This document shows, in pieces, positions 1 through 61,710 of a stretch of DNA of 64,000 bases. The stretch comes from Bilabrum cf. latius (Eukaryota). The notes under the pieces were generated by a model. The model was not told the origin of the DNA and made no database searches. It saw only the letters and a program-made list of their open reading frames with translations. A program made the translations under genes and the position numbers. The DNA lies in contig OZ237771.1 in assembly GCA_965178125.1 (NCBI GenBank), forward strand, positions 372,001 through 436,000. The letters run 5' to 3'. Within the stretch, counting starts at the first letter, position 1, and each line of letters opens with the position of its first letter.

Positions 1-1283
1 TCTTTTCCTGGCGTCTCCCTGATGAAATACTCCACTGCGGGCGGGTGCCCCTCGCGTATGCGCTGCACGGGCGATTCTGGGGCCAAAAGGAATGATTTGA
101 TGATTCGGTCCAGGGTGGAGGCGTCGCGGAATTGTTCCCTGGCCTCTGCACTGCCGGTTTCCTGGATGGCCGCAATCACGTCGCTCGGCTCGCACCCCCG
201 CTCCCCGGCACCGATGGCCACTGTGACGAGTGTGCTCAGGGCCTCCCTGACGACGTCGTCCTCCTCGTCGCCCTAGCTCCGAATCCACCGCTGGATGGCG
301 GCGGAGATGACTGTCCCTGCGCCGCCGCTGGCCCTCTGCCAGAGGCACTAGGTCGCGGCACGGTCGGCCAGCGCCTGGTGCCCAAGCTGGGAGTGTAGCT
401 GGTCTCGCCTGGCGCGCTTGTCGACCATGTGACGAGTGTACTGCGCCTCCAGCCCGTCCAGGTGCCGCAGGAATGCGATGCCCCGGACCGAGTGCGCCGC
501 TACCACTGTGACGAGTGCTCTGGCGGCACCGAAGCAGAGCCGCATGCGGTCTGGGACGTCCCAGCCGGACTGCTCTGCCTGCGCGCCTGCGCTTAGCACA
601 AGCAGAGCAGACGCTGCCTGCTGCACGATGTGAGCTGCTCCCATGGAAGCAACCCCCGCCGAGTCTGTAGGGTCTGCGCCCAGGGATCGCATGAGCTGCT
701 GCGCCCCCGCCGCCCGCCCGACAGAGCTCGCCGGCTGGGCAAGCAGCCGAAGCAGGCTGTAGACATCCATCGAACGAGGAGACATAAGAGAATCTCCAGT
801 TGAAGATGCTTCGCGGCCGTCAATTTGAGACGGCATGATCGGTGCCACAGCTTGCCGCATCGTTTCCATGCTTCGTTGGAAATAATCGAATGGCGAAAGC
901 TCTGCTGGAAGCCACTGCGTCTGCGCGACAATCTCGTCGCCGTGACAAGTCGGTACGGTTGCATAAAACAAATTAGTAGCAGTCGCATGCTCTGCAGGCA
1001 CAGACTTGGCGAGCCCGGAAGGACGTACGCGGGCATCAGCTGGCAGAGCGAACACTGCGGGGCGAGCACATGGCGACGCCTCCCCCGAAGCCTGATACGA
1101 TTGTACTGCCTACCTTGAGATCCTAGACGCATCATCTGCGGACACTCTCATGGTTCCGTGGAGCATTTTTGCTACATCAGAAGCTTTGAGGTCCGATTGG
1201 GATGCTTGCCCAAGTCCCGCATTGTATTTGTCAGCATACTGCCGTGCTTGCGCTAAAAGTGCGCGAACACGGTCTGATTCCAT
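1..1283 (-). CDS. Hypothetical protein, 3' end runs off the window; 3 in-frame TAG
   Basis: ATG at 1283 (MESDRVRALL). ORFs 1110..1307 and 348..1055 share a frame and are separated only by TAG (1110, 348, about 273). The frame stays open to base 1. Confidence 0.6.
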
Positions 1284-1525
1284 ACTTAGTATATAAATAC
1301 TAGTCACACGGGCGACCGGATTACTATATGATGCTGGAGCAGCGATGAATCAGTTGTGTTCTAGCACGACCGGCCACTGGCATCAAGGATTCATCGAACC
1401 TTCGAAATGAACGTTCCCCCAACATTGATTTTTTTTCCACGGCTTTCGGATTGATAGTCCTACGACTTGCCTGTAAAACTTCATGCGTCCGCAACTCATG
1501 CCAACAAACAATAAATCATGTGCAC

Positions 1526-3186
1526 TCAAGATACCACGCACCCTTTATCATCATCTCTGGACTCCGCGGACCCCGGAGCTCCTCCGCCCGAAGCGCCCCC
1601 CATCGGGGGCCCGCCGGCCCCACCCCCAACCCCATCCGGATTGGGAGGGCTCGCCCACCCACTCGTCACACCGTTACCCGTACCACTACTCCCAATCCCT
1701 CCTGGCGGCGGAGCGTACCAACCCTGACCCCCGGGCCCGCCATTGCCACTGCCACTACCACTGCCACTGCCACCATACGTCGCACCAGAACTCGCCCCAG
1801 ACGGACCGAGCCCGCCGCCCTGAGGTGCCCCCGGGTATGCTCTCAGATCGGGAGCCGAAGGTCCGGGATACGCGGGTGCCTACGGGGCGTACGGGTCGTG
1901 TGACGAGTATCCCGGGCCGCCTACCATCGGGGCAGATCCACCCCCCACGGCCCCGGGGTCATCGCCCCCCCATGAGGGGGTTCCCGTTCCGGCTCCGAAT
2001 CCTGCGCCCGCCGCTCCCGGGTGCTTCTTCGGCGCAGCCGATGCGGAACCTGCCTGCTGGGAGGATGGCGGAGGCGGGGCGGTCGCAAACCCTCCATCAC
2101 CGTGGTACTGGTAGGCCGAGCCAATGCTGCCTGTTGCTCCCGGCTGCGGCCGCCACCCACCCGTAGAGGGTGCTGGTGCACCGGTGCCTGCCATGTCCAT
2201 GGGCGGGTCCTCATCTCTGACCATTGGGCCGTAGGTTGCCTCTAGGATGACGACTAGGAACTCGTCCAGGGACACCTGAGTAGATCAAGCAAACACAAAA
2301 GGGCGAGTGGTAGCAGTTGATGGCGCCATCCGCAAGTAGCAGTAGAGTAAAACCTAGGCCAGTCGCAAAACCTACATATTAAGCTTACCTCGCCGTCATT
2401 GTTTCGGTCTACAACACGCATGAATGCGTCCCCATCAGCTCCGACAGCTGCCATGCCTGTCCGCAGTTCCGAAGAATCGAGCACCATGTTGCCGTCGCGG
2501 TCAAGCCGTCGAAACACAGCGATAGCATTTTCAAGCGTCGGTGTGCTGCCGCTGCTAACGCCGCAGAACAGTCGGCTTGCCTCCCGCAATTTATGTGCTG
2601 CTTCTTTTGTGAGATCATCCAGAACGGGTGGTTCAGCTCCAGTTGTCGTCAGCATTCTGGGCAAAAGAACCCGCAAGAACTCCTCCAGCTGTATCGATCC
2701 ATCTCCATTTAAATCCATTTCACGAAATAGCTAGTCCGCCTCGGAACGAGACACCCCCGGATACCGTCGCATCTCGTCAATCGAAATCTCGCCGTCTCCA
2801 TCTCCAAACTGACGATCGAGATCTCTGAATGTTTCAGCAAGCATATGATGTAATGAATCATTAATAGCAGCATCCTGTCTTCTGGCTAAACTGGACATTT
2901 CTAACTCTAAAGTGTGATCTTGGCCACCCTCGCTCACTTTCCGCGAAACCACATCGCCATCGTCACACCATTGGCAGCCTTCGCAACGTTGCAGTGCGTT
3001 CTCGTCACTACAAGAATAGACATTATACGCTGAGCTGATGCCTGTAACCTCTGCCAAAGACCATTGCACCCTCTTTACTGCCGTGGCAGTGCTCATTCCA
3101 CCCGCTTCCATTGTGATGAGGATGTCATCCACCCCGCACTCCGCACTCTGCTACAGCGGGGAGTTCTCAGCGCAGCCCCGCGGCAT
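1526..3186 (-). CDS. Multi-EF-hand Ca2+-binding protein with Gly/Pro-rich tail and C-terminal CaaX motif (CVVS)
   Basis: EF loops DGDGEISIDE, DLNGDGSIQLEE, DRDGNMVLDSSE and DRNNDGE|VSLDE. The last is completed by a GT-AG intron at 2276-2388. TAG read through at about 3151, 2731 and 1880. Ends CVVS-TGA at 1526. Start uncertain; it may be spliced to the upstream EF-hand segment. Confidence 0.7.
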
Positions 3187-4292: not shown

Positions 4293-7200
4293 ATGGACCC
4301 ACTGGATTAGTGGAGAGTGAGATCCGATATGCATCGCAGTATCAAGAACTGGCCTTGCCGTTGCGCTTCGGAAGAAATTGCCGTCTGAAGGCTGGGTAGC
4401 TTGTCAACGTGATACATATGTTGACCGTTACATGATAATACCTATGATGCGTTTGCTTCGATGCGGTGCTCTTTATATGTGCCCGGACTCGATGTGCATG
4501 CTATCTATCGTGCAAGAAAGTCCTTTCAACGGTATATCTTCACCGAGTTTACTTTGTCGCAGTTTGATGGCGACGCCGAACTTGCGCAGTGTCGCTTCGC
4601 GGATGCTGTTCGTTGCTATGACAAAGTGAGCCTTGTTGAGGACCACCACGCGTCGCAGCCCTCTAACTGCGCGCCCCCGTCATGCAGCCCCCGGCTGCGC
4701 TGCTCCATCGATCATTAAAAATATGTATATCATACATAATATCACCGCAGGCCATGTCGCGAAGCATCGAAGAGGTGGGTTGCAGCACCCGACGCATCGC
4801 CGCCCTCATCGGCTGCGGCCGGCGGCGGGACATCAGGCGGGCGCTGGAGGCGGCCGAGCGGCTTGCGACCAACAACCCCACGTGGTGCATCGCTGCCCTG
4901 CTCCTGGCCACGGCACAGGCCAAGGCGGGCCTTCCCTCCCAGGCGGTTGCAACCCTGGAGAAAGCCAGATCGCTCCTGGGCGTTGGCAGGCAGCTGGGCA
5001 TACGAGGCTACACGGACGCGGTGAGGGTCGTGACAGACGCGATCGAGGCAGCGTCCGTGTCGGCACAGGCGGCAGGGGGGCTGGGCGGGGACGTGGCAGG
5101 GCTGGAGGTGGAGGGCAAGGGACTCGGAGCCGGAAGTGCTGGAGAGGGGGGCTCGGCAGGCCCCGGGCACGAAGACAAGGAGAGGGAGGCGTGTGACGAG
5201 GACAAGGACGACGGGGCCGGGGACAGCAGCGAGGACGAGAACGAAGAATGCGCCGAGGGGGAGGAAGAGGAGGAGGTGCCCAGGGCGCCGCGCAATCTTG
5301 CGGAACTCGCCATGCTGGACGCTGTGTCGGCGGCCGCGGTCCGCGTCGCCTTGGGCCTGTCCCAGTCCGGGGGCGGCAAGCCCGTTGTTCCCTCGAGACA
5401 ATCGGGCCCATGGTGGACCGAGGAGGACGCCGCGAGAGCATCCGGAGCCACGGGTGTGACGAGTGAATCCGGAGCCCCTTCCACTGCTTCCTCCTCGGCC
5501 GCAGGAGCAGCCTCGGCAGCAGGAGCCGCCACGGAGGGGTCTTCCCATGCCGCCGCGGGACTAATGTCGGAAACCAAGACGGGAGAGGGGAACGATGACC
5601 CGGAATCAAAATTGGCCTCGTCCTCCGGTGGCGACGACGACGATGATGCGGCTTCCAAGGAGGCTGACGACGACGAGGACGGGACTTACAAAGACATGGA
5701 GTATTGGCTGCTGACTGCGGCTCCCCACAGGCCCCCGGACCACGCAGAGGTGGCCAAAGAGGCAGGCGTGGATCTTCTGAGCGACGGTGACGAGGGCGGT
5801 GCAGGCGAAGGCTCGTCTGGTGCGGGGGCAGGTGCAGGGGCTGGGACGGCAGGCGGGGCCAGCAGCAGCAGCAGCAGCAGCAGCGGTGCCGGCGCTGGTA
5901 CTGGCGGTGAAATCGTGGCGGGTGCTGCGCCAGGGGTCGAGGCCGCCCTGACGAGTGTGACGAGTGCGGCCTCTCGGCCGGGCACTGCTGCAGCCGCCGA
6001 GGAGGCCCGCCTGGCCATGGCCGACACCTCCTGGCGGCCCCCTTCAACGACCCGGAGCCATTTTCCCCACATCCACATCGTCAAGTACGGCCCGCACTAC
6101 AGGGGCGTGCATGCCGTGAGGGACGTGCCACCCAACACCCTGCTGATGTCGATCGACGTGCGGTTCCTGATTACCGTGGAGATGGGCAAGCGGACTGACA
6201 TAGGGAGACGCATGGCCCAGGCCAGGCCTCCACTGGAGCTGTCAGCTGCCAAGCACTGCTACACGGCGGTGTTTGTGATGCTAGACATGCTGAACGGGGA
6301 GTCGTTCTATCAGCCGTACTACAGGGTGCTCCCGGCTGCCTTCCCCTCCATACCCGTGTTCTGGGACGACGACGAGCTCAAGCTGCTCGCGGGGTCGTAT
6401 GTGCAGCAGCAGGTGCTCGACAGGCGCGCGAACATCGACGCGGATTACGACGAGATCGCCCGTGTGGCCCCCTCCTTCACCCGGTTCTCCAGGGAACAAT
6501 TCCTGTGGGCCAGGATGATGGTCGCGAGCCGCAACTTTGGCGTCAACATCGGGGGCCAGAAGACGGACGCGCTTGTCCCATACGCGGACATGCTGAACCA
6601 CTACCGCCCGAGGGAGACGCGGTGGACCTACAACAACTCGATGCGTTGCTTCACCATCCACTCCATCGACTCCCTCAAGGCCGGGGAGCAGATCTACGAC
6701 TCGTACGGCAAGAAGTGCAACAGCAGGTTCCTGTTGAACTACGGGTTTACGGTGGACTTCAACCGGGATGACGAGTGCAGCCAGTGCCACAACGAGGTCA
6801 AGATCGACCTCCAGCTGCTGGGTGCAGCGCACGATCCGTGGTGGGGACAGAAGAGGGCACTCCTCGAGTCTGGGGAACACAAGAGGTCGGTCAGGGTGGC
6901 GGCATACCTCTCCCACGCAGGCACCAAGGAGGCCCTCAGCTTCCTCCGGTTTGCCCACGCCCAGAGAACAGAGGTCGCAAGGCTGCCCTATCTCGGGTAG
7001 GAGCAGGACCTTGGTCGCAAGCCCATCAGGCCACTGTCCTGCCGAAACGAAGCAGAGGTGCTTGGACACCTGGCCCAGGTGTGCCGGGCATAGCTGGAGG
7101 GCTACCCGACCACCTTGGAGGAGGACGTGGCCGAGCTGGCTGCGGGGACCTACCCCGTCGGTTGCAACCGGCGGAACTGCCTGGTGCTGCTCCGCGGAGA

Positions 7201-12370: not shown

Positions 12371-15300
12371 TCAACTAGACCCGCTACTACCCCTGGAAGA
12401 GCGACGGTGCAGCTTGCGCCTAGACTTCCTCGGTTCACCTGCCCCTGCCCCTGCCATTGCACTGCCGTGCGATGCAACCTGATACTGCGCGGATGGTTCC
12501 CTGCTCCCCCCGCTCCCACGAGGCGGCGCCTTCCCCGCACCTACCCCTGCCGCAGCCCCGGGCCGCAGCCCCCACCCCCCGGCCCGCCCAAGCAAGGACA
12601 GCGACCCGAGCTGGCCCATCCCCGCACTCGTCACACCAACGCTCGTCACACCCACACCCCTGACCCTGGCTCCCGCCTTGGCCGCCATCGCCAGTCGACG
12701 GGCGGCCGCCCGCTTGGCCAGCGCCGGGTTGCCACCGTGCCGCCTCCCACTCAGGTCCAAAAGCGAAGAAGAAGATGACCCGCCGGGCGTGGCTGTCTCG
12801 ATTACCACCAGGTCTGAGGGCGCGGAAGCAGCCACGGGTGGATTGGGGTGTGACGAGTGCGACGCACCGCCGGCCTCCTTCCCGCGATGCTCCCGGCCGG
12901 TGTCGCGACGAGGACCGCGCCGAGCCGCCGGTGATTTCGACTCCGAGTCGCTTCCTTCAGCCCCAAGTGGGGGTGGAGATAGGCCCCTAGGTAGCTGGGG
13001 GTCGCCCAGCGATAGCCCCAGAAGCATGCTGCCCTCACTCGTCACACCACCATCCCCCGCATCCGTTGCAGCATTGAGCCTGCCCAGCCGCGCCGACCAC
13101 CCAGCCCCCCCACGCGAAGCACTCGTCACACTGCGGCCCGCCAAACCTGGGCTCATGCCGGCAGCGGGAGAGCCCATCGTCACGCCGTCAGCCTCTGCCG
13201 GCACGCCAGCGTACGGCGAACCGAACGATGCGTCGTACGGCGACCCAGCCCGCCGGCGATTCCGTCGTACGCTATCCGAGTCGGACTCGTGACCCCCCCT
13301 ACCGCCCCCTCGCGGAGATCCGGGACCCCTACCCCACAGTGGGGACACAGCAGTCCCCGACGGTGACTCGTACCCCGCATGCAGTGCATCGCCAGGGTGC
13401 ACCGCACTGTGGCGACGGGCTGCCGTGCCGTCGCCGGGTGCTCCGATCATGCCAGGGGGTTGCCTGCCTGTGAGCAAGTTGATGACCCGGCCATCGTGAC
13501 CCGCTGACGTGGTGGGCGCGATGGTGGCGCGCACCAGCCCTCCGCCGCTGTTTGCACCAGGCGTGCTTGAAGACGATGCGCTGCCGTGCAATGCACTCGT
13601 ACCTTGCTTCTGCCGGTCCTGCTGCGAGGGCCGGCCAGCACCCGAGTCGTCGCTGCCTGACGACGAATCGCTCGCGCTATGTGACGAGTGCGTCCAGCCA
13701 CGATTCCGAAGCAGGGGTGACCCGTCTGGCGGCACAGCCTCTGTCGTATTCCGTGCATTGGTGCCACTGACGTCATTTCTAACATCACCACCTTGACCCG
13801 TGACCCCACGCGCGTGCTGTGCACCGCCATTGTCATCTTCATCTTCGAATGCGTTGTACGCATCCCGCATGGTGGAGTCCACCGGTGGATCCCTCGCCCT
13901 CAGGCCGTCCACCCGTCGGTGGAATGACTCCAGCTCGGAAGGGGTAGGGGAGGGGGGCGATGGCCGTCCACTCCCATTTCCACTCCCGCTCCCTGCCATA
14001 CCTCTCTATCCGACCCCCACCGCGTCGACGACATCGACATCCTTGGTCCCAGCGCAAGAGCCAGAGGCAGCATGGCCCCCCGTGCCATGCCCCCCCGCAG
14101 CCCCTTCACCCCTATCATCATCATTGACCATGCCTGCCTGCCCTGCTTCGTGTTTTCCGACTCCCTTGCTCCCTAGTGAAGGTTCCCTGGTCCCCAGCAG
14201 CGAAGCTTCGTTGTCGACATCACCCACTTCCCCCCCCCAGGGAGCAACAAGCATATCACTCCAGTGCAGTGCACCCAGCGCCCTGTCCACTACATAGGCG
14301 CAAGGAGCAGCAGACATCACTACACCACTGGCGTGCTTTATGGCTCCGGATCGCATCCGTCGCTCCCTCCCGCGCGCCGCCGCCGCGAGCTGCAGCAAAT
14401 CCCGGGGCGCCACACTCGTCACGGCAGCATCCCCCCCAGCCAGCGCCACCACGTCACACGCAAGGGAAGTGCAGTCTCCTGCAGACGATGCTGCCCTCTG
14501 CCCCTCATCACTCGTCACACCGTGTCTAGGGTCCCCAACGCAGGCCACGGCACTAGCCCCAGTTGTCAGCGCCAGGCGCGCTGCCTCGGCGTGCGACACT
14601 GCCTCACTCGTCACACCTCCCGACTACCCCAGCCGCAGCCTGTGAGACATCCCCGCACGCGTACTGCTCTAGCCCGCGCCGTGTCCTGATTTGCTCCCTG
14701 AGGTGGCCCTCGCCCAAGCATCCAGCGCGGCGTTCAAGATCGAGCCTTCGCGAGCCTTGTCCAGCAGGCCGTCCCCAGCACCTCCATGCAATGCACTTGT
14801 ACCGTCCCCGGCAGCAGGCTCATCCCTGGAGGGGCGGCCTCGACGGCGCTTGCGACCGGCGAGCGACGGCTTTCCGTGGTGTGACGAGTGCAGTTCGAGA
14901 TCAAGACGAGCGCAGAGCTGCAAAGCCGGCAGCTGTAAGTGTTGCGATGTCCCGTCCTGGGTCCCGGTTGCAACCTAGCCACCGGTTGCAACCTAGCCAC
15001 CGCTGCTCCCACCGGTGTGGCAGAGCCATATGCCACCCTCGCTGGCACCTGCCGCCGTTGTACCTTCGCCGGATTCAATCGTCACACACGTATCGTCACT
15101 TCCCCAAGGCGTCCTCGCGGCAAGCGAGTTTGGATCGATGCTCCCACCGGCCCCGCGCGGTCCCGCGTGTGCCCTGGCCCCGCCCTCTGCCACCAGCACG
15201 GCCCTGGGGCATGGTGACCCGCCGCGAGCGGCCACCTCGGATGCAAGTGTGACGAGTGAGACGGGGCGCTACTGCAGCGCCCGCTGCATCCCCGGGTTGC

Positions 15301-15706
15301 TCATCTCGCAGCTTAGGCGAGCATCGAGCAGCTGCTCCAGCTGGTCCAACTCCTCGGCGAGGCCTTTCGAACTGGTCGCAACTCCGTCGGCGATCGCAGC
15401 AGCGCGTTCGTACCGAGCAACGGACGCACGGACATGTTTCGGCGGGCGGGCCTAGCTGCTAGTGTGACGAGTTCCGCTGGCCCCTACGCTCTGGCTCCCA
15501 TCGGCCGTCCGTCGTCGTCGAGCCGGAGAGGGTGTGGCAGCTGGATCCAACTGTGACTGCGCCCCAGCAGCACGCGAGCTCAGGGCCAGTTTTGAGGGCC
15601 TACTGCTGGTGATCATAGAGGGGAAAGGGTTCTGCAACAGCGCAGGCTAGCACTCGGCAGAATGGCTGCGGGGCAAGTTGAGGAGAAGCACCAAAACCAG
15701 TTGCAT
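12371..15706 (-). CDS. Large low-complexity (Gly/Ser/Ala-rich) hypothetical protein, about 1100 aa
   Basis: ORFs 15452..15637, 14993..15235, 14669..14923, 14006..14614 and 12371..13999 are all in one frame and separated only by TAG. Ends TGA at 12371. Start uncertain. Confidence 0.6.
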
Positions 15707-16237
15707 TCACATGCATGCTGAAGCGCCGCTGCCAAGTTACCTGCAAACTCACAGACCAAAGTTTTTGCTATTGTGATGGGCAAATACGCCGGACTGGGAC
15801 AGAACTCTAAGCAGATCATCAAGCTACCCCGCTTCGTCGTCAGATTGGCACAGTAAGCTGCAAATAGACTCTATACTGGCTCTTCCACTTGTACCAGCCC
15901 CTATTAATGCATCGGCGATTGTCTACAAGCTAATATTCAGGCGGCTGCTATTCAGATTCATCGCCAACCGGCCACTACAATGAATGTTGATCCTGCAATG
16001 GTCCTGATCAACGCATTGTTTGGTACGTATTCCCCAAGATCTTGCACAAGACGTAAGACAGATGTCAGCTCTATGAATCAGTGAAAACAACTACGACGGG
16101 CGACCGTATGAGTATTGGGAGCGCCTAATTCGCGGGATCCGTGATGAATGCGATTAAGCAGGAAGCTCCTTGTAGTACACGTTACTAAATGTCGAAGGCA
16201 ACTCCGCCACAAATTGAACCGTTTAGAGTCTCCTATC

Positions 16238-18024
16238 ATGCAGATAGCTCCCATCGTATCAAGCGTACTAATAATATCATGTGCGTTTGCCAAGATGTCC
16301 GTCGATCCTGACCGAAACCAGTTCGTTGATAGCGAGACAGGCCAGTATGTGCTGTTTCACGGTACAGCAGTTGAAAATGCCGCTGCCCCCGCGTACTTGG
16401 CTGATCAGCAGCTGGATATGATGAAAAAATGGGGATTTAACGTTCTCAGGGTCGGCTTTCACTGGCATTTGTACGAGACAGCCCCTGGTGTCTGGAATGA
16501 AACATACTTGGAGCAGGTTGCAGACCTCGTGAAACGCGTGGGAGAGCGCGATATGCTCGTTTTTCTCGACATGCACCAGGATTCATGGTCACCATTGTAC
16601 TGCGACGGGCACGGCATCCCATGGTTCTACGCTACGCCGTCAAACGACAGCGTGTACTGGGCCCCGAGCGGCAACCTAACTTTCCCGTGGCCCATCGCGG
16701 AGCCAGCGTACGCGAACCCACCCGACTGCTACGATGAGGCAGGTCACTGGTGCCGCGTGTCTGACTGCAGCAACGTGTCGAGCAGCATATTCAGCTGGGC
16801 GGGCACATACGCCACCGCGGCCCTCTCCTCCGGCGCCCAGCGCCTGTACTCGGATCACGCCGTCACGCAGGCATTCCTCGAGTTCTGGACGCGGGTCGCG
16901 AAGCGATTCCGGCAGCCCGACGTCGCCCCCCACATCCTCGCATACGAGCTCATCAACGAGCCGTGGCTCGGGGACATTTACGCGAACGTCTCGCTCCTAA
17001 TCCCGGGAGAGGCGGACAAGACCAACCTGCAGCCATTCTACGACACAGTGTCGGAGTCACTCCGAGAAACTGACCCCGACACAATATTGTTCTTTGAGCC
17101 CGCCACGGGCGGCAACATCCTGGACGCTCCCCCCGCAGGGCTGTCCCACCCGCCTGGAGGCATGGAGCATGCAGGCAAGAGCGCACTGAGCTACCACATC
17201 TACTGCCTTCTACTTGAGGCAGACATGCCAGTGAATCCCGTGAGTTGTAGATTGGTTACATTGCTCTGGATTTTGCACGGCTGTGCTCATACATATTCAG
17301 GGCCAGCCGGCCGGTTATAGTGCATGTTCCGGCCCCAGACCCATCCGCACTCGTCATCTTCTCATGCCCCCGCTCCCCACCGCAGCACCCAGGGAACAGC
17401 TCCACGGCGTGGCTGGAGTACGAAGCATGCGAATGGGGGAACAACATCCAGTTCAATGTCCGGCACAAGGACGTCAAGAAGCTTCGAGTGGCCGGTTTCC
17501 TTTCGGAGTTCGGTGCGGTGCGCGAGGCACCGCAGACCATCGACGTCCTCAGGTACACCACCCAGGCCATGGACGATCAGCTGACCAGCTGGGCCTACTG
17601 GCTCATCACGCCGTCCATGAACTCGTCACACCCCAACTGGGAGCCCAAATGGCTCTCGCGCACATACCCCCGCCGCAGCCCCGGCCCGCTCGTGGCGGTG
17701 AACTTCAACGATTCCACCGGGCACTTCAACTGCACCTTCCAGCCTAGTTCCTAGGCTAACATTGAAACCAGTGGCGACGGCGATTCATCTTCTGCTCTAG
17801 TTCGTGAGCTTGAGCTGTACGGCTCGAGCGAGTTCTACTATCCCCACGGGATTCAGTGGTCTGTCTCGCCCGCCGGTGCTCTGTCTATGGCCAGGCCATT
17901 CAATGCCAGCACGGGTTTGGCCACCTTCGCGCTTAAGGAAGGTGTGACGAGTGATGTCACGCTGACGGTGTGGCCGGCAGCCAGCTCGGCCGGTCGGGAC
18001 TACGAAAAGAAGCGGCGCAGCTGA
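16238..18024 (+). CDS. GH5 endoglycoceramidase-like hydrolase, secreted
   Basis: Signal peptide, WGFNVLRVGFHW, LDMHQD, AYELINEPW (acid/base) and FLSEFG (nucleophile). Intron 17240-17385. TAG at 17752 precedes a C-terminal beta-domain-like segment (ELYGSSEFYYPHG). Ends TGA at 18022-18024. Confidence 0.85.
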
Positions 18025-18258
18025 AGATGATCGGAGAGCAGCTGGTCGGCTTGATTGAAAGGGGCTGGGGGGTCTCTAGTGCCTCGGTGCCCTCGGGATC
18101 CCCACCTTATTGCTTGGAGTACGTGTCTGCTTGCGCAAATCAAAAATTGAATTGTTGCTTTTGAATGAAGATGAAGATTATAATGGCAACCTGCCACTTC
18201 CGGTGTGGCTGGAACGCTGTCGCTGTCGAGCTATTCCCGCCTGTAGTTCGACCGGATC

Positions 18259-21258: not shown

Positions 21259-21467
21259 TATAACATATCACAAGAATCTGTGAATCTAGCTGGGTTACAG
21301 ACGCTGTGCATGTTTGCAAATTTCCGGCATGGGGCCGCGGTTCCGGTTTAGTACTCGCTGTTCAAGAACGACAACAAAACACATCAATATTAGACAAATT
21401 CTGACATTGACGCCTTTCAGTTGTGATCTAATTGGACATCTTACGTAGACATTCAATTCTACTCGGA

Positions 21468-35396: not shown

Positions 35397-36587
35397 TTAA
35401 GTACGAGTTGCTGCAACCAGTTCCTGCCTGTACCTAACGACTTCCTCGTCGTCCATGGCCCAGATCTGCCCCTTTTCCTCCTCCCGGGCTCGCACCAGCG
35501 AGACCGCCTGGTCCTCTGTCAGGCCGAGCAATTGCCGCCCAATCGTTTTGCTCGCTTCCATAGGGTCAATGGGAAGGCCGTCTGGCGCTATCCGCTCGCC
35601 ATCCTCCTCCTCTGCTGCTGCACTGCTACTGCTACTGCTTGACGTGCCTCGTTTGGACCCAACGGCACCGCCTGCCCCCCCCACAGACCCCCCCACAGAC
35701 CCCCCCACAGACCCCCCCACAGACCCCCCCACAGACCCCCAGTCCAGCCTCCCAAGGGGATCCGAGGGAAGCAGCGCAGCGCGGGCCAGAAGCTCGCAAG
35801 CGCCCGCCATCTCTTCACTCGTCACACCGAACGCGGCCGGCCAGAACGTCTCGCGCGGCGTCGGAGCCCCGATGCAGGCGGCGGCGAGCTCCAGTGATGC
35901 GCAGGCGACGGCCGAGTGCCTGTACCTCAACGAGGACCCAAGTCGGTGGCTGTCCTGGGCCAGCGTCCATGCGAGGGCGAGCGCTCCGGCCGGCAGGTCG
36001 AGCAGGTGCGCCATGAAGACGAGCAGGGAATGCGGCGTTGCGCCCTGCTGCGGGAAATCAAATCCGCAAGACGCGATCGTGTCACGTTCGCAGCGCAATA
36101 CTGCTAGAGAGCGGCGCTAGTAGGACTGGCAGTGCCTCGTGAGGGGAGCATCCTTTGCTTGTCGTCGTGATGCATCGGACATGTGCTGTGCTTGCACCAC
36201 TGAGGCCATGTCGACGGGACATTCCAGGAGCTTGGACGCAAGAAATATTGCTGATGCGGCAATTGAACTTGAGAGTGGCACCGTGATGTGTCTGCCTTTC
36301 GCGAGGAAGCTCGCTGCCAAACAGGAAGCTGTCTCAACAACCGCAGCAGACCTGCGCTCAGAATGGAATGGAATCCTTGTCATATGCCTCGGTGTTGGTT
36401 TCAAGATTCAGTCCTTGTACAATTTGATTCATACGCACGCTCACTGTCCGAGCAATGCTGCAATATCCAGAATATGATCTGCGGTCGTGCACAACGCAAC
36501 AGTGTCGAGGTGCTGCAACGAATGCAAACTTGCTCTGCCATGCAGCCCATCCGGGATGTGCGATACCAGTTTTTGGGCAGCCACCAT
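35397..36587 (-). CDS. Transcription-type cyclin (cyclin L/K/T-like)
   Basis: Cyclin-box motifs AASAIFLASKLLECP, LRCERDTIASCGFDF and YRHSAVACASLELAA. Intron 36352-36444. TAG at 36117. Terminates at TAA 35397-35399. Confidence 0.75.
35674..35740. repeat. 12-bp tandem repeat (CCCCCCACAGAC, about 5 copies) encoding GGSV repeats
   Basis: Seen directly, inside the cyclin-like CDS. Confidence 0.9.
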
Positions 36588-52336: not shown

Positions 52337-55300
52337 ATGCAACTTGACACAGATTCAGTGTTAAATCTCCCAGCTGACGATGTGATCAGCCTCTTGGAAA
52401 CAGATTCAGCCCAAGGTCTCCAGCAATCTGCTGTGGAAGCCAAGGTGCAGCGATACGGAAACAATGTAGTCGAAACCGGGGATGACGACTCGTTGATCAT
52501 GAAGTTCCTCGAGTAGTTTCAAGATCCAATGATTATCCTGCTGCTGGTATCTGCTGGCATCAGCTTTCTTCTCGGCTAGTGGGATGACGCGCTGTCGATC
52601 TGCTTGGCAGTTCTTATCGTTGTGGTCGTGGCCTTTATCCAAGAGTGGAAGAGTGATCAGAGCTTGGAAGCGCTGAAGCACCTAGCACCGCCTGTGTCAA
52701 ATGTAATTCGAGATGGCAGAGAAATGCAGCTGAAAGCCGAACATGTGAGCCGCAGCAACACCGAAAGCCAGCGTGAATCTGCACAAGTAGCGAGGCTTTC
52801 GCGTAGCTGCTATAGTGCTCGCTCCGTGGTAGCACCACGTTTCAAATATCATAACGCGCATACACACGCACCCTCCCCCGACGCTGAGCCATCCCCCTTT
52901 CACCCTTTCCCTCGCCGCAGCTCGTCCCGGGAGATATCATTCGGCTCCGGATGGGCGACAGGGTCCCAGCCGACGCTCTCCTGCTGGACACGGTCTGGCT
53001 CCGGTGTGACGAGGCCTCGTTCACGGGGGAATCGCACGCGGTGGAGAAGCAGGGTATCCGCAGCAACGACAAAGGGGCGGTGCAGCCCCAGCACGGCGAC
53101 GGCATGCCGCTCCCCCCCAAGGCTAGCACTCGTCACACTGACACCGAGGAGGGGCGCACCGGCCCCAGCAGGCGCAGGGTACCCCCCGGGCCCGGTGGGC
53201 TGTCGTCGTCGTCGGCGGCGACGGCGGGGGCGGGGGCATCAGCAAGCGGCCTGGATTGGAAGGCCTCGCACCCCTCCATGTCCGACCTGGTTGCAACCGC
53301 CTCGCAATCGGGGGCGACGGGCGCCGCGCGGTAGGGGCTCGGAGTTGCCAGCGGAACCGGTTCGCCCGCGCCCGCCCTCCAGGATGCGGAACTTGCGCGG
53401 CGCCGCCGCGAACATCTCGCCCTCATGTCCACCCTGGTGGTGGCGGGGGAGGGAACCGCCGTGGTGGTTGCAACCGGTGCTGGCACGAGGCTGGGTCAGC
53501 TGGTGCAGGACGTGGAGGAGGCGGAAGAGACGAAAACGCCCCTGCAGGAGCGGATGGCCGACCTGGGCAAGCAGCTGACGATCGCATCCTTCCTCGTGAT
53601 CTTCGTCATCGGCGGGATCGGCACACTGCAGGGGAAATCCCTCCTGCAGATGCTGACCATTGGGGTGTCCCTGGCCGTGGCAGCCATCCCAGAGGGGCTG
53701 CCCATCGTAACGGTCGTCACGCTGGCGCTCGGGGTGCAGCGCCTTGCGGTGCGCAAGGCGGTGGTGAAGCGCCTCCCCGCCACCGAGGCCCTGGGCAGCA
53801 CGCAGGTGCTGTGCTGCGACAAGACGGGCTGCCTCACGGAGAACAAGATGAGCCTTGTTTCGGCGTTCGCGCCCGGCATCATGCCCGCCTCCAAGGTTTC
53901 AGGTGTGACGAGTGATGGAGGTGTGACGAGTGCGAAGAGGCGGCCGCGCCCTGGTGACGAGGAGGCGCGCGTCAGGACCATGCTGGAGGGCGGGGCCATG
54001 ATCGCGTTCACCAGCGGGAGCAGCGGCAGCAGCAGGGGGACACCTGGGGACCACGGGGAAAGTGGCAGCGGAACCGTGCAGCGAGGCGCCGCGCAAACTA
54101 GGGGGTTCGCCAGGATCGCGGAATCGGGTCGAAAGGCGGGTTTATCAGCCCCAGTGGACGCCTGCAGCTGCCCGCAGGCCGGGGCGCTGCTCGAGGCAGC
54201 GTCCGTGTGCAGGTCGAGTGCATTGCACGGTGGTGCAGACGGCGCCGAGGACGGAGGGCACTCGGAGGAACAGTCGCACTCGTCACACGAAGCTCCCGCG
54301 CCTCCGCAGGGCAGTCCCTTGGAGCGCATGATCGGACCAGCCGCCGCCAAGCTGGGTCTCGCGGGGGTCAGTCGTCGCTATGACGTCACCGGGATGCTCC
54401 CCTTTGACCCGCTGCGGAAGTACATGGCGGTCAGAGTCAGGGCTCGTCCGGACACGCACGGGATGTGGGGGTTGCTGCACCCGCCAGGCGTGCCGCAGCC
54501 CGGTGGTGTCGGCGCTGTGGCCGGGGGAGGACCGGATGATGGTGGTGCATCAGCCGGCGGGCAGGCAGCCTCCGAGGAGCACCACACTCGTCACACCCAT
54601 GGACCCATTTCACCTTACTCTTCCGCCCCCCAAGCCGGGGAACAACAGCAAGGGGCCTCCAGCGCGCCCCCCACCCCGCTCAACAGCGACCACCAGGCCA
54701 AGATGGCATCCAGGGGACAGGCACCGCTGCCGCCCCCCACGGCTGCCCCTGCCGCAAGGGCAGTCCCCACCCCCCTCAGCACAGAGCCCTCCGCGGGGGA
54801 GGCCTACGTGGGCTGGATGCCCCCACCGGGGAGGCAAGCACAGGCTGCCTCGAAGCACCGGCACCCAGACACGGCCACAGCCACCGACACAGCCTCCCCC
54901 CGGGAGTTTTACTTCGTCAAGGGGGCCTTTGAGCGGGTCCTGCCCATGTGCGACAGGGTTGTTCTGCCCAGGGGGTCACCCTACTCCGGTTCCGCAGTGT
55001 GCGCGGCGCCACGGCGGATCGGGTGGGAGGAGTACAGGGCCATCGATGGGGTGCACGCCCAGATGTCCTGCGAGGGGCTCCGGGTCATCGCGGTTGCAAC
55101 CGGTTGGAGGGTGCCGGCGGGGGAGGCGGCAGAGGCGGAGGCTCGCGCCATGCGTGCTGCGTCGTCCTCGCAGCTCGAAGCGGGTGGGGCGGGGTATACG
55201 AGGGCCGGGCCATCGATGCCTCGGTGGCTGGGCGACGACAGGCAGGGCGCGCTGCCTGGGGGTGCATCGCACGGTGGTGTCGAAGGCCTCGTGTTCCTCG

Positions 55301-56973
55301 GCCTCCTCGGGTTCATGGATCCGATCCGATCCTCTGTGCCCCGAGCGGTCCGTCAGCTGCACGGGGCGGGCATGCGGGTCATCATGATCACGGGAGACGG
55401 GAAGCTGACCGCCGCCGCGATCGCCAAGCAGGCCGGCATCTTGCCGCAGGTCATGCAGGGGGAAGAGGGAAGGCGGCAGCTGGAGCGGCTGGCCCTGATG
55501 CCGGCCATGGCGGAGCGACGAGCGGCGAGTCAGGGGCAGCCGGGGCAGGACGGTCAGGAGGAGGACGAGAAGAAGGACGAGCATGCGCTGGCAGCTGCGG
55601 AGGCGGCGGCAGCGGCGCTCGCGGGTGGCATGCAGGTCACGACCGCGGACATCGAGGCCGGGCGGGCCGCCAGAGCTCTCGTGGGGGGAGAGGAGGTGGA
55701 GCGGATGGATGACGTGGAGCTGTCCAACGCGGTGGCTCTGGGCGCGGTGTTCTACCGCACGTGGCCCAAGCACAAGCTGAGGATCGTGCGGGCGCTTCAG
55801 AGGAGGGGGCAGGTGGTGGCCATGACCGGAGACGGCGTGAACGACGCGGCTGCGCTGCGACAGGCCAACATCGGGATCGCCATGGGCAAAGGCGGCACGG
55901 CGGTGGCCCGAGAAGCGGCTGACGTTGTCCTACTGGAGGACGATTTCGACAGCATCGTGGCGGCGGTGAGGGAGGGGCGGGGCATCTTCGACAACATCCT
56001 GGCCTTCGTCCGATTCCAGCTTACCACCAGCGTCGCGGCTCTGGGGCTGATCGCGGCGGCGTATGCCATCGGTTTGCCCACCCCTTTGAACGCCTCCATG
56101 GTGCTGTGCATCAACCTGATCATGGACGGCTTCCCCGCGCAGTCTCTCGGTGTCGAGCCCGTGGCCCCCGATGTGATGAGGAGAGCCCCCCGGAGCCCCT
56201 CCCAGGCCGTGGTGAGTGCCCCCATGTTGGGGTCAATGGTGTTCACCGCGGGGGCGGTGCTGGGGGTGACTCTGTACGTGTTCCTCACTGAGATTGCAGC
56301 CGACGGTCAGGTTACTAGGCGGGACACCACCATGACCTTCGTGGCGTTTGTAACGAGCGATTTGGTATTGGCGCTGTCCTGCCGCAGCACAACGAAGAGC
56401 GTGCTGGAGCTGGGTCTGCTGTCCAACCCTTTCTTCCTCGTTGCGATCGGGGCCAGCTTCCTCGGCCAGGTCCTCATCGTGTATGCCCCGCCCCTGCAGG
56501 CTGTCTTCAAGACCGAGGCCATCAGCGCTTGGGACTTCGCCTGGGTGAACCTTCTCTCGCTTTCGGTGCTTGGGGTGGATGAATTGAGGAAGGCGTTGGA
56601 GAGAGCGGGCGTTCTGCGGATGCCGCAGAGTTTTCCCGGTGCTTGCGTGACTGCGTGGGACGGTGTGCAGTGGGGCGGTGACAGGGTCATCGGAGTGACG
56701 TGGGGGTTTTCCCAGCGGGCGTGGGGCGTGTGTGCGTGGGTGTGCACGTGCGGGGGCTGCTGCTGCAACGGGGGGAAGGGAAGGGGCAGCAACAAGAAGC
56801 ATGCGGAAGAGGAGCAGGGGGCCCTGGGGGAGGCGGAGGGGGACGGCGTGGGCCTGCTGGCGGGGCAGGGGCACGGGTCCCGGGGTGTTCACGAAGATTC
56901 GCTGCGGAACATTGGCGGGCTTGCTCTCGGCGGAAGTCCCGGGGCAGGGGCAAAGTCGGACAGGGACGTGTGA
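52337..56973 (+). CDS. P2A-type Ca2+/Mn2+ ATPase of the secretory pathway (SPCA/PMR1/ATP2C-like)
   Basis: FLE*FQDPMIILLL, LG*WDDALSI, TGES, AAIPEGLP, DKTG, KGAFE, MITGD, MTGDGVNDA, FQLTTS, INLIMDG and TRRDTTMTF. Intron 52745-52920. TAG at 52514, 52577, 53332. Ends TGA. Confidence 0.95.
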
Positions 56974-57457
56974 CGAGTGTGCAGTGCGCTGCTCGAGGGG
57001 ACCACGCGTGCAGCTACCTGCCAGTGAGGTCCTCCGCGCTGCCAAAAGGCCGGGATGTGGCGGGCGTTTGGCCCACTTGACTGCAATTTGCGAGTGCCCA
57101 TGTATCGTCTCTTCTTGTTGTTAGATGCTCATGGGCCGAGACATGCAGTCCGTGCAAAGCGATGTGACGAACGCACTTGATTCGCGTCACGATTGATTAC
57201 GCTTCACATCGTCGATACTGGCATGTCCATCGATACGTACAGCGGACTTCTTATACTATGCGACTCTAATTCCAAATTCTCAAAGGTTTGGGGGCACGCA
57301 GTTGTTAGTTTGCTGAAGAAAAATGACAAGCAATGTGAGACGCCGAACCAAGGCTTGGTGCAAACCCTTCGAAATAGTGACGACCGACTATCGAAAATGC
57401 GTGCAACCTCTAGTTTTTTCTGCAGTTTTGATGCAATTTAGGCCGTATGACTCTGAT

Positions 57458-58086: not shown

Positions 58087-61000
58087 ATGGATCCCAATCA
58101 GCATTTATACGGACATGGCGGTGGATAGCACAATGTGATTCAGTTTGGTGGTGGCGGAGGAGGCCACGACAACCAGATGGCATCGGGCGGGTTTACAGGC
58201 CCGGCTCACCACCAGACGTTCGTTCTCGGTAGCGAGCACATGATCGATCCATCAGGGCCTACATTCTATCAAGCCACCGATTCTCATGGAAGAGTGGTCG
58301 CTCAGAGCGCCCAGATGGGAGTACCCGGTGCTAACTACGTTGCTGTTTCCCAGCCCATGCATTACTCCTCTCCACGGCAGGAAACCATGCGACAGGACTT
58401 TAGACTGAACCCGGGGCAGCTTCCCCCCATGGAACCAGGCCGCAGGCCCACTCCGGCGGTGGCAGCCGAGGAATCGCACTCGACGCGTGGTCGAGGCAGC
58501 GCGGGCGGCCAGCCGCGCCCCATGCAGCTTCAGCTCGTGGGACACCAGCACCAGCACCAGCACATGCCACTCTCCGCGCAGGCTGCGTCCATGGCACGAG
58601 GCCACATCGTGGCCACGAGCGGGATGCGCATCCCCGGGGGCGGCGGCATGCTGGTGCTGCCCCCGGGAAGCAGCGGCGGGATGGGGATGGGAGTGGGCGT
58701 GTCGTCGGGAGTGGGGCCGGTGGCCAGCCCCCAGGGGTCGGAGAAGGCGTTTCACTTTGACGGAGGATCAGGCGGCGGCAGCAGCAGCAGCGGCCCCCAG
58801 AGGCACAGCTCGAACGGGTCCATGGGCGGGGGGGGTACCCTCATGGATGTCCCCGACATGGGGGGGGATGGCGAGGGGGGCATGGGGGGGAGCCCCGACC
58901 TAGAGGGACAGCTGCCCATGGACGGCTCCCATGGGTTCCACTCTTCATCTTCATCATCGTCTTCATCTTCATCTTCATCCCAGCATGCGCCCATCCAGGC
59001 ATCCCGGTTCCTTGGGCTAGTGCAGCAGGGGGGCGGGGCTGGAGGACCCTCGGTGATGCAGCTGCAGCAGCAGCAGCAGCAGCAGCAGATGGCTCAGATG
59101 GCTCAGATGCACGCGCAGATGCAGGCACAGGCGGGATAGGTCCAGGCACCCCAGGGGACAATCCTGATGCGATCCTCGTACGCCATGCAGCAAGACCCCT
59201 CCATGGGGCAGACCCTCTCTGTTCCCCAGGGGGTCTCCCAGGGAGTCATGCAGGGGCAGACACTCATCATTCCGCAGCAGGTGCAGATACACCCCGTGAG
59301 CGGGGTCATTAACCTCCCCGCGGCACCCCCCCCGCCCCCGCACTCGTCCATGGGAGGAGGCACCGCGGGGGGGCAGGAGCAGGGGCAGGGGCAGGGGCAG
59401 GGCAGAGGGGGGGGGCGGTACGGAGGCATGCAGCAGCAGATGTCCGCTGCGCAGGCGGCTGCGGCTGCGCTTGCCCAGCACTCGGCGCAGGCTGGGGGTG
59501 CAGGGCACGGTGGTGCATCGACAGGCGCCCAGAGCACGTCACAGCGCGGGGCGGGGGCGGGGGCTGGGGCGGGGGCTGGGGGCGGGCCAAGGTCTAGATC
59601 AAGCGGTGGGGGCCGGCGTGGAAGTGGAGCCGGCTCCTCGTCCAAGGTGGGGAACAAGCGATCTAGGCAGCAACGGGAGCAGGAGGAGGGACAGGGACAG
59701 GTCCCAGGGAACAGCGCGGGCCACGACATCGATCAGGCCGCCGTGGCAGCAGCCGCCATGGTGAGCGAGGCCAGGATGGCAATGTCCAACAGCAGCAGAG
59801 TAGGAGGAGGAGGAGGAGGAGGAATGGGGGGTATGCCTGCATCGGCTTCGTCTGTCCCCACGGTGGACATTCCTGCTGCCCGCGGGCGTAAGGATCCGGG
59901 GTCCGGGGGCCCCCCCGCGCCCAAGCGGTACCGCCGGGGGGGGGGCGGAGAGCGGCACTTCAACGAGCGGGCCGAGATTTCAAAGGCGCTGGCGGAGGGC
60001 AAGGACCTGGGGCAGACCACGGCCGAGCTGCTGAAGCGGCCTGAGAAGCAGAGGCGGCTGGGGAAGAAGGCCTCCCTGCTGGTGGGGAACGTGTACGTGG
60101 GTAGGTCGGGCAAGGTCAGCACCCGAGCCATCAAGAACAGGCCGGAGCTGTTCGGACACGCAGACGGCGCAACGGACCCGCCCTTGGCCGGACTGCTGGG
60201 CGAGAAGACGTGCCACTCGTGCCACTACCGGCGAGCACTCGTCATCGACTGTGCGTGGGCGTCACTCAACAAAGGCAGGCACAGCTACTGCGCCAACTGC
60301 CTCCGTCGCCGCATGAACGTCGATTTCCATGCCATTCGATGCGGTTTCGTCAAGTACCACTGCCCGGTGTGCGAAGGCCTGTGCCCGTGCTCCAGTTGCA
60401 AGAAGAAGAACGGCGGGGTGAAGCCCTTCCCCTTTGAGTACGCACCGTGCGTTGACAGGACGAGGCTCAGCAGCAAGTCGGGGGGCACACTCGAGGCTGC
60501 CCCTGCGGACCCTGTCATGTACCCCGGGTGTGCTGCCCAGTACCCAGGAGGTTCCGTCAACGGCACGGTGGGTTTACCGGATGCTGCCCCCTCGGCTGCA
60601 GCCGGCGGGGCGTCGGTGACCATGCCCAAGCCACCCGCCATGGGAGCTGCGGACCTCTCTGCAGCCGCGAGCAAGGCCGCTTCGCAGGGAACAACGACAA
60701 CCGCGACGTCATCTTCCTCGGCCTCATCTTCATCTTCATCTTCCTCCTAGGCAGATGCACTCAAGGACTCCAAGTAGAGCAAGCACGGCAGCGGCAGTCC
60801 ACCGAACACCGAAGAGACCATCGCCACAGCCACTCGGGTGGCTGAAGAGGTGAGAAAAATGGCGGGCCAGGGAACAACGGGGGAACAGCAGCAGCAGCGG
60901 AAGGAGGCGGAGGGCAGCAGCCATGTGATGAGTGCGGCCGCCGCGGCAGCCGCCGCCGCAGCCGCCGCCGCAGCCCGCAGCACCCCGGGCACTGACCCAA

Positions 61001-61710
61001 GCCTCACCCGGGCTGCGGAGGTTGCCGCTGTGGCCGCCGCATCCGGCGCCGTGGGCCCCCCACCCGTACCCTCGTCTTCATCTTCATCTTCATCCCACGC
61101 GGTACCTCCTCCGGTGGCCCTTGGTCCGGTGAGCCTGAGCACGTCCGTGTACGCCGACAAGCAGGCGGTGAAGCCCCCCCAGGCCGCGCTTAGGCAGGGT
61201 GCCAGGGCTGCCCCCGGACCCCTGGCACCCGGTGGACTCGTGCATGAGGGCGGGGAGGATATGGTTCCGCAAACCGGGGCGGGGCACATGGTGACGAGTC
61301 GTACCAAGGGCAAGGGCAGGGGCAGGGGCAAGAAGGGGGGTGGAGCCAAGGCGGGTGGCCAGGCGACCACCAGCAGCAGGGGGGGTGGGCTTAGGCTGAC
61401 TCCGGCCTCCGCTGCTGCTGCTGCGGCGGCGGCAGCGGCGGGGGCAGCGAATGCCGCAGCGGCCGCTGAGCTCACCGCACCGCAGGTGTCCTCGACGACT
61501 GCTGCTGCTGCGGCGGGGTCTTCTTCTGCTTCCGGTGATGGTGCAAATCAAGATGGGGAAGGGGAAGGGGAGTCGTCGAAGGGCGAGTGGATGGGACAAG
61601 GGACGCAACAGCCAGCGGCCAAGGGCACCTCTGCCCCTGCCTCTGCCCCAGCTGCAGCTGCTTCTGGTGCCGCAGCTGATGACTAGGCTGACGGCAAGGA
61701 AGAGAGCTGA
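58087..61710 (+). CDS. Gln/Gly/Ala-rich protein with zf-4CXXC_R1 (CDCA7-type) zinc finger
   Basis: KTCHSC...C...HSYCANCLRRR...YHCPVCEGLCPCSSC. Three long ORFs joined by TAG (58126, 59137, 60748, about 60775, 61684). Ends TGA at 61708-61710. Confidence 0.8.

Follow-up and report, generated by a model that had tools for sequence, protein, structure and literature searches.

A hyper-abundant, non-palindromic DNA word dispersed through the coding sequence of a protist nuclear locus

Introduction

Why should one short string of nucleotides recur again and again within the genes of a eukaryote, on both strands and in several reading frames? The question is raised by a 64-kb stretch of contig OZ237771.1 (positions 372,001 to 436,000; hereafter the window, meaning the whole stretch analyzed, numbered from its first letter). 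Here the 9-mer GTGACGAGT or its complement occurs as 37 exact copies, 20 on the plus strand and 17 on the minus strand, a density of 0.58 per kb. Short words that are hyper-abundant, letter-perfect and kept despite codon preference characterize a few bacterial systems (uptake sequences, HIP1 and Chi), each of which revealed a DNA-handling machine. A literature search that covered motif strings and the word in eukaryotes and thraustochytrids, outside subscription journals, returned no report of such a word among the matches listed, and those to motif strings were primers and guide sequences. We asked at which level the word acts, how its copies arose, whether it extends beyond the window, and what could keep it there.

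Results

The copies had been recognized from the letters alone in an original prediction, which gave 37 starts, a chance expectation of about 0.5 copies and many one-mismatch copies. All 37 starts match and the window holds no further copies, while the zero-order expectation for GTGACGAGT is 0.49, in agreement with the predicted figure. In 100 dinucleotide shuffles the mean was 0.32 copies and the maximum 3, and none of the 100 reached 37. When Markov chains of orders 1 to 5 were trained on the window after masking of the word copies, the expectation was 0.3 to 1.6 for the 9-mer and 0.007 to 0.06 for the 12-mer described next. Alignment of the 37 copies on their own strands extends the motif to the consensus R-G-T-GTGACGAGT-G, the full word being (R)GTGTGACGAGTG: position -3 is a purine in 31 of 37, -2 is G in 28, -1 is T in 34, and +9 is G in 32, and the columns beyond -3 and +9 are unremarkable. 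The 12-mer GTGTGACGAGTG is present in 25 copies and is the top-ranking 12-mer of the window, above CAG runs and one tandem array. Of the 11-mer TGTGACGAGTG, 30 copies are exact and 18 differ at one position (1.21 expected for both jointly), which bears out the predicted near-copies; only 2 of these 18 are the CpG-to-TpG variant, and the observed/expected ratio of CpG is 0.85. GTGTGACGAGTG is not palindromic, its reverse complement being CACTCGTCACAC. Apart from their G+C and G-rich composition, the 100-nt flanks of the copies yielded no secondary motif.

The 62 longest non-overlapping stop-to-stop open reading frames (ORFs), spanning 48.9 kb, served as stand-ins for coding sequence, and gene models here are ORF-based only. 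These ORFs contain 32 of the 37 copies, with 5 outside. Shuffling synonymous codons inside them, which keeps every protein and the codon usage of each ORF, gave a mean of 1.45 copies and a maximum of 5 in 300 trials, against the 32 observed; shuffling codon order gave 0.28. The excess thus persists under codon-preserving as well as Markov nulls. Spelling tells the same way. Among the VTS tripeptides in long ORFs, 13 of 21 are written GTG-ACG-AGT, where codon usage (GTG 51%, ACG 31% and AGT 10% of Ser; GGT is 18% of Gly) would predict about 1.6%, and 7 of 8 HSSH peptides come from the word's complement, as do 5 of 6 TRH peptides. One sense frame of the word holds a TGA, and the remaining five frames are all in use. 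If the longest ORF over each copy is taken, VTS is the reading of about 20 copies and CDE of one at most. The antisense readings are HSSH, TRH(T) or LVT, with some 15 antisense copies spread over three frames. Moreover, the flank preferences at -2 (G), -1 (T) and +9 (G) do not differ between the 20 VTS-frame copies and the other 17. Because the word outlasts the codon shuffles, keeps its flanks regardless of frame and is spelt with rare codons, the signal resides in the nucleotides, and it overrides codon preference. This is what had been predicted in denying a protein-level signal, and the predicted occurrence in both orientations and in VTS, LVT, HSSH and TRH phases was likewise seen. As for the predicted overlap with the ATPase stop codon, the copy at 56970-56978 contains the TGA that closes ORF 53425-56973. 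This TGA is the putative stop of the ATPase, to which homology extends as far as about residue 1061 of 1182.

The 60-nt flanks of the 37 copies have an in-register identity of 0.294, compared with 0.267 at random positions. The flanks being unalike, the copies are not pieces of a longer repeat. Four copies lie in protein that can be aligned. In the gene for the RNA polymerase III subunit RPC2, the block reads G-[VAMIL]-x-[SCT]-[DA] in 20 homologs, with no gap at the GVTSD encoded by the copy; in the ATPase, the copy at 53905 encodes SGVTSDGG where a homolog has VTGVGYNGN, again with no gap; and two copies stand at the ends of a canonical 34-residue TPR unit (matched residues 114-143, next unit from 148) without change of length. 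Because there is no indel at any of these four (0 of 4), they were made by point substitution and not by insertion. A transposon remnant or miniature inverted-repeat transposable element (MITE) was rejected as a candidate for the word on the flank identities and the absence of indels. The RPC2 copy is spelt with the rare codons GGT (18% of Gly) and AGT (10% of Ser), and the RPC2 homologs are too conserved to reveal a peptide footprint of the word. Against local triplet shuffles, GTGTGACGAGTG is enriched 750-fold at zero mismatches (25 copies) and 71-fold at one (19), then 2.6-fold at two (15) and 1.1-fold at three (53), with background beyond, and its variants concentrate at the first and last three positions. 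If read as a balance of mutation and fixation, this spectrum would correspond to scaled advantages of about 1, 3 and 2.4 as a sequence takes its final three steps toward the word.

Within the window the copies are clustered. The variance-to-mean ratio of counts in 2-kb bins is 2.3, with 13 copies in 12.6-15.5 kb and none in 44-53 kb; by ORF-based gene models, the RPC2 and MCM ORFs (4.5 kb) hold 1 copy and the low-complexity ORFs (2.9 kb) hold 13. The 60-nt flanks are 69% G+C, compared with 61% for the window, with G slightly in excess on the strand of the word; to this extent a predicted preference for GC-rich gene bodies stands. The shortest distance between neighbors is 18 nt and the longest 9844 nt. 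Several copies have another copy or a near-copy within 10-24 nt (pairs at 10, 15, 18 and 24 nt), three are exactly 96 nt apart, and the spacers between adjacent copies 15-24 nt apart are unlike one another. Orientation switches 21 times over the 37 copies, often within 100-400 nt. Tandem Repeats Finder reports 19 rows in the window, none with the word, and on this result and the spread of distances a micro- or minisatellite was rejected.

Positions 12301-32300 were compared with Logan contigs of four separately filed runs from four studies. All listed contig pieces of at least 300 nt show no difference to the window; listed differences occur only at 22314, 22321, 30792 and 30795, and none is at any word copy. 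Contigs from X5 and X8 skip seven segments that an X4 contig carries through (Table 1), and these segments start with GTGAG, GTAAG or GTGCG and end with CAG. They are spliceosomal introns, and the X5 and X8 contigs with these joints come from spliced RNA despite the run labels; a run search for the stretch listed no RNA run. The spliced contigs contain five copies (17621, 17944, 27757, 27816 and 29455). Six more (14510, 14606, 14881, 15249, 15464 and 25351) are in unbroken X5 contigs without joints, which could be DNA, and the copy at 25351 is covered by an X8 contig too. Since copies lie inside spliced contigs and none of the seven introns starts or ends with it, the word is neither an intron element nor a signal for splicing. 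Rfam at gathering score found no family in the window. An assembly or adapter artefact, named in the original prediction as a possible undoing, is not what these data show: no difference to the four runs is listed at any copy, and across the RPC2 copy the conserved G-V-T-S-D is encoded with no indel. With its GT..AG introns and genes for RPC2, MCM and a secretory-pathway ATPase, the window is eukaryotic nuclear DNA.

The source is probably a poorly sampled, stramenopile-affiliated protist. The closest match to its RPC2 among 5.8 billion proteins is 69% identical (P0001), and in a quick maximum-likelihood tree of RPC2 the window falls in a 15-sequence clade that is sister to oomycetes plus ochrophytes, with a Shimodaira-Hasegawa-like approximate likelihood ratio test (SH-aLRT) support of 100. 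P0001 is labelled as a dinoflagellate (Symbiodinium sp.), yet it groups in this clade; the label may stem from contamination of that assembly.

Outside the window, metagenome contigs were scanned for two copies within 30 nt. The scan returned at least 118 loci, of which most of those listed are unrelated tandem repeats in DNA of 30-74% G+C. Among the matches listed, 11 contigs carry the GGTGTGACGAGTG context at 53-62% G+C and fall into two prefix groups (Table 1). Their tetranucleotide correlation with the window is 0.63-0.84, and that of the window's own 3-kb pieces is 0.68-0.80. Over their 49.7 kb they hold 10 dispersed copies besides the seeded pairs, against about 0.4 expected, and one of them, L025, has an SMC gene whose parts fall in several minus-strand ORFs, as those of a eukaryotic gene would. 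L035 and L104 are 99.9-100% identical over about 2 kb, with a length difference of about 40 nt at a repeat; this identity crosses the two prefixes, and therefore one organism recurs in two samples. Arrays that bear the word have periods of 15 (L003), 18 (L117, L071) and 22 (L047). Confinement of the word to the window, which the original prediction had allowed for as a refutation, is contradicted by its dispersal in 11 compositionally similar contigs, and the word appears to be shared by a related environmental genome.

Scans of other DNA turned up different material. Viral contigs gave 2 loci, both one low-complexity GT/GA-rich tract and a different phenomenon. Prokaryotes, at one genome per species, gave 79 loci; the dispersed GGTGTGACGAGTG pattern is in none of the eight examined in full, which hold either a local repeat or the heptamer GTGACGN arrayed in tandem. 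Degenerate (GTGACGN)n arrays recur in contigs of 33-37% G+C of one Odoribacter-labelled assembly (L122, L132, L147, L172, L188 and others), and from the locus list alone, eight Chthoniobacterales/Spartobacteria loci each have a 25-nt two-copy match. The (GTGACGN)n arrays are a repeat family separate from the word.

Discussion

The explanation we favor, at what we judge to be an even chance of being right, is that GTGTGACGAGTG is a lineage-specific word in duplex DNA that is read by a sequence-specific protein and has accumulated by selection or transmission bias. The protein would read about 12-13 bp of double-stranded DNA, and sequences nearing the word would be fixed more often than they are lost. 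Coding constraint would filter where this is tolerated, leaving few copies in cores of the RPC2/MCM type and many in low-complexity stretches. We would apportion the fixation bias roughly 60:40 between organism-level selection and pure transmission bias. The larger share would come from a chromosomal function of the sites, for example in chromatin organization or in chromosome pairing and recombination, and the smaller from a motif-directed bias in gene conversion or repair, a eukaryotic analogue of uptake-sequence drive. A DNA-binding protein would be the simplest reader, in that the graded edges, the independence of frame and the homotypic clusters of variable spacing resemble those of binding sites. 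If the word is genome-wide, it points to such a sequence-specific reader in a poorly sampled stramenopile-affiliated lineage.

Several points weigh against this explanation. The reader is wholly inferred, and we know of no function for a site this dense in eukaryotic exons. The survey consists of 64 kb plus contigs chosen for carrying two copies, and the metagenome loci compared have no orthologous overlap with the window. Finally, the great majority of sense copies share one frame (about 20 read VTS and no more than 1 reads CDE), which could hide a coding component; we attribute this predominance to tolerance of the encoded peptide.

A more sweeping reading, which we regard as unlikely, makes the word a eukaryotic counterpart of the uptake and HIP-type words, a dodecamer spread through the whole nuclear genome, exons included, by motif-directed transmission bias. 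A protein would then skew gene conversion or repair toward the word, and the proteome would pay in odd peptides and rare codons. If true, this would be a new class of eukaryotic molecular drive and a new determinant of protein sequence.

Patches of 12-13 nt might instead be overwritten as units, by ectopic conversion or templated repair from another copy or an abundant template, and then decay neutrally. The mismatch spectrum, enriched at zero and one mismatch and dropping to 2.6-fold at two and 1.1-fold at three, looks as if copies were born perfect, and both the absence of indels at the four testable sites and the frequent position of copies 10-24 nt from another copy or near-copy are in keeping with such copying. 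Still, 12 bases are far below the homology that eukaryotic recombination normally needs, the edges of the word are graded and not sharp, and no template RNA was found, the window holding no Rfam family; we consider unit-wise copying quite unlikely. Local duplication, in which the word would be the conserved seed of slippage-born minisatellites that spread locally and decayed to single copies, could draw on the metagenome arrays with the word in their unit (periods 15, 18 and 22) and, in the window, on the pairs at 10, 15, 18 and 24 nt and the trio at 96 nt. However, those arrays were preselected by the two-copy search pattern. The word is in 0 of 19 Tandem Repeats Finder rows, spacers differ between adjacent copies, all 37 copies have unrelated flanks at the 120-nt flank level, and the copies within RPC2, TPR and ATPase cores leave length unchanged, all of which makes this origin very unlikely in our view.

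Recognition of the word at the transcript level, whether by a small RNA or by an RNA-binding protein, would suit the finding that at least 5, and probably 11, of the 19 copies in 12301-32300 are in transcript-derived contigs. Yet both orientations occur within one gene (3 sense and 2 antisense in the ATPase, 1 and 1 in the EGF-like gene, 1 and 1 in the GH5 gene), and an RNA reader would therefore meet two unrelated sequences; with a word that has no fold of its own and no Rfam match, we find an RNA-level element highly improbable. More improbable still is debris of mobile elements, be it transposon or MITE footprints, termini or target sites. Neighboring inverted pairs such as 27757/27816 (23-nt arms, 83% complementary) and 43199/43284 have that appearance, but arm orientation and spacing are not consistent, the flanks are non-homologous, there is no insertion relative to homologs, and spliced contigs traverse the pairs within exons. 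That the word is a by-product of coding or composition, through a favored peptide G-V-T-S-D/E or a codon-pair bias, is suggested by the roughly 20 of 37 copies that read VTS in the longest covering ORF. It is refuted as far as ORF-based gene models allow, and effectively excluded, by the synonymous (1.45) and codon-order (0.28) shuffles against 32 observed, the rare GGT and AGT codons, the approximately 15 antisense copies in three frames, and the 5 copies outside long ORFs. The chance of an artefact of assembly, adapter or contamination is negligible: contigs of four runs cover copies with no difference listed at any, copies are in frame in conserved proteins, and the same word is in unrelated metagenome assemblies.

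How does the word compare with known systems? The uptake signal sequences (USS) of Pasteurellaceae and the DNA uptake sequences (DUS) of Neisseria are words of 9-12 nt with a density of roughly one per kb. They lie on either strand and within coding regions, where several frames are used, and accumulate by substitution and not by insertion. The word described here is like them in its density of 0.58 per kb, its use of both strands (20 plus, 17 minus) and, by ORF-based gene models, of several coding frames, and its apparent origin by substitution. Unlike them, it is found in a eukaryote with spliceosomal introns, outside the bacterial setting of competence and an uptake receptor, and the bacterial driving step, preferential uptake plus recombination, is without an evident counterpart. 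HIP1 of cyanobacteria (GCGATCGC) is a palindromic octamer, hyper-abundant in genes, with a suspected link to a DNA-modifying or DNA-binding protein. Both it and the word are dispersed in genes at the nucleotide level, but the word is a non-palindromic 12-13-mer in a eukaryote, and membership in the HIP1 type was rejected because GTGTGACGAGTG differs from CACTCGTCACAC. Chi and other polar bacterial words are over-represented, are read by a protein machine and are strongly co-oriented with replication; the word, in contrast, alternates in orientation on a sub-kilobase scale, and its 21 switches along 37 copies led us to reject a Chi-like or replication-polar word. The analogies drawn in the original prediction therefore survive in part: the anatomy of uptake sequences fits, whereas HIP1 fails for want of a palindrome and Chi for want of strand polarity.

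Eukaryotic parallels are also partial. The pairing-center and X-enriched 12-mers of Caenorhabditis elegans form many clustered copies in both orientations, are bound by zinc-finger proteins in a chromosome-scale function, and are regional and largely non-coding. The word shares their length, clustering and use of both orientations; its copies, however, are in exons, including conserved cores. Coding sequence of Eimeria is populated by CAG and telomere-like heptamer repeats in tandem low-complexity tracts. These too are DNA-level repeats in several coding frames of a protist, whereas copies of the word are solitary and exact, with unrelated flanks.

For uptake sequences in coding regions, one published account reports that the encoded peptides are more frequent and that poorly conserved positions are preferred (PMC2817400). 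If genome-wide, the word would offer a clean system for measuring how a force at the DNA level reshapes proteins, the peptides VTS, HSSH and TRH being mostly by-products. It also has a practical use, as a lineage marker that picks contigs of the organism from metagenomes.

Feature list and additional observations

Table 1. Copies of the word, introns, genes and related contigs. Each copy is an exact GTGACGAGT match, with ORF readings from the longest covering ORF; aa, amino acids.
Feature	Position	Strand	Context
Copy 1	223..231	+	TRH antisense, 273-aa minus ORF
Copy 2	429..437	+	HSSH antisense, 273-aa minus ORF of copy 1
Copy 3	508..516	+	TRH antisense, 273-aa minus ORF of copy 1
Copy 4	1661..1669	-	HSSH antisense, 229-aa plus ORF
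Copy 5	1900..1908	+	VTS sense, 229-aa plus ORF of copy 4
Copy 6	5456..5464	+	VTS sense, SET-domain ORF, 5' of SET domain
Copy 7	5957..5965	+	VTS sense, SET-domain ORF; near-copy 10 nt upstream
Copy 8	12626..12634	-	VTS sense, low-complexity 544-aa minus ORF; one-mismatch copy at 12640
Copy 9	12850..12858	+	HSSH antisense, 544-aa minus ORF of copy 8
Copy 10	13037..13045	-	VTS sense
Copy 11	13121..13129	-	VTS sense
Copy 12	13681..13689	+	HSSH antisense
Copy 13	14414..14422	-	VTS, 205-aa minus ORF; opens trio at 96-nt spacing
Copy 14	14510..14518	-	Unbroken X5 contig 14500-15665
Copy 15	14606..14614	-	X5 contig 14500-15665
Copy 16	14881..14889	+	X5 contig 14500-15665; VTS, 231-aa plus ORF
Copy 17	15249..15257	+	X5 contig 14500-15665
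Copy 18	15464..15472	+	X5 contig 14500-15665
Copy 19	17621..17629	-	Antisense, GH5 gene exon 2; spliced contig (intron 17240-17385 removed)
Copy 20	17944..17952	+	Spliced contig of copy 19; beyond end of ORF 17283-17747, probably 3' untranslated region
Copy 21	25351..25359	+	Unbroken contigs X5 24259-25752 and X8 24262-25671
Copy 22	27757..27765	+	LVT antisense, minus-strand EGF-like gene; spliced contig
Copy 23	27816..27824	-	VTS sense, EGF-like gene and contig of copy 22
Copy 24	29455..29463	+	RPC2, GGT GTG ACG AGT GAC = GVTSD; gapless vs 20 homologs
Copy 25	35817..35825	-	Covered by two 239-aa ORFs on opposite strands
Copy 26	39614..39622	-	CpG-to-TpG near-copy 24 nt off at 39637
Copy 27	40030..40038	+	Sole CDE-frame candidate
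Copy 28	41480..41488	-	VTS sense, 443-aa minus ORF
Copy 29	43199..43207	-	VTS sense, end of first 34-residue TPR unit
Copy 30	43284..43292	+	LVT antisense, start of first 34-residue TPR unit
Copy 31	53128..53136	-	5' of long ATPase ORF
Copy 32	53905..53913	+	ATPase SGVTSDGG, gapless vs homolog VTGVGYNGN
Copy 33	53923..53931	+	18 nt past copy 32; spacer differs
Copy 34	54278..54286	-	HSSH antisense, lineage-specific loop of ATPase N domain
Copy 35	54586..54594	-	TRHT antisense, ATPase stretch of ~150 residues without counterpart in homolog
Copy 36	56970..56978	+	TGA of copy closes ORF 53425-56973
Copy 37	61291..61299	+	VTS sense, 302-aa plus ORF
Skipped segment	17240-17385		X5/X8 contig joint
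Skipped segment	21771-21880		X5/X8 contig joint
Skipped segment	21995-22088		X5/X8 contig joint
Skipped segment	22184-22363		X5/X8 contig joint
Skipped segment	23632-23820		X5/X8 contig joint
Skipped segment	28055-28243	-	X5/X8 contig joint
Skipped segment	28670-28822		X5/X8 contig joint
RPC2	29242-32157		RNA polymerase III subunit (Pfam)
MCM	32738-34330	-	Pfam
ATPase ORF	53425-56973	+	SPCA type
CDCA7-type ORF	59167-60750	+	4CXXC_R1 zinc finger, E 3.5e-08
GGCGCAGGTGCT array	45792-46139		28.5 tandem copies of a 12-mer
Prefix group one			Nine metagenome contigs: L003, L006, L025, L035, L043, L047, L051, L071, L117
Prefix group two			Two metagenome contigs: L074, L104

Besides RPC2 and MCM, Pfam families in the window include a SET-domain ORF, a P-type ATPase, a GH5 glycosidase, a helicase C domain, TPR repeats, EGF-like repeats and a CDCA7-type 4CXXC zinc finger. 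CDCA7-type proteins accompany the maintenance of cytosine methylation, which bears on a possible methylation of the word's CpG. The ATPase is of the secretory-pathway Ca/Mn (ATP2C/PMR1, SPCA) type by its best named matches, with a best local identity of 55% in the protein collection. Its motif reads DKTGC where the homolog has DKTGT, and two stretches of about 130 and 150 residues (residues ~167-295 and ~338-491) are without a counterpart in the homolog. The only GT[AG][AC]G donor candidate in 53880-54950 is located inside a word copy, and we therefore treat these inserts as putative coding loops.

The GGCGCAGGTGCT array has a high plus-strand coding score and is unrelated to the word; it is a second source of frequent 12-mers in the window.

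Contig depth varies along the compared region. Parts of 12968-14301 are thinly covered in X5, X7 and X8, and nothing was drawn from low cover. Summed X4 depth over 12301-12967 is 67, compared with about 18 nearby. Many short-sided X4 "joints" end beside copies (12625, 13052/13676, 14521, 14623 and 29450), a hint that word-bearing 20-29-mers recur elsewhere in the genome. All four runs also show a jump in summed contig depth over 20305-20971, to 2117 in X4, where nearby values are about 18. This stretch has a tract rich in CAG/CAA close to the helicase ORF, probably a repeat of polyglutamine type common to many loci.

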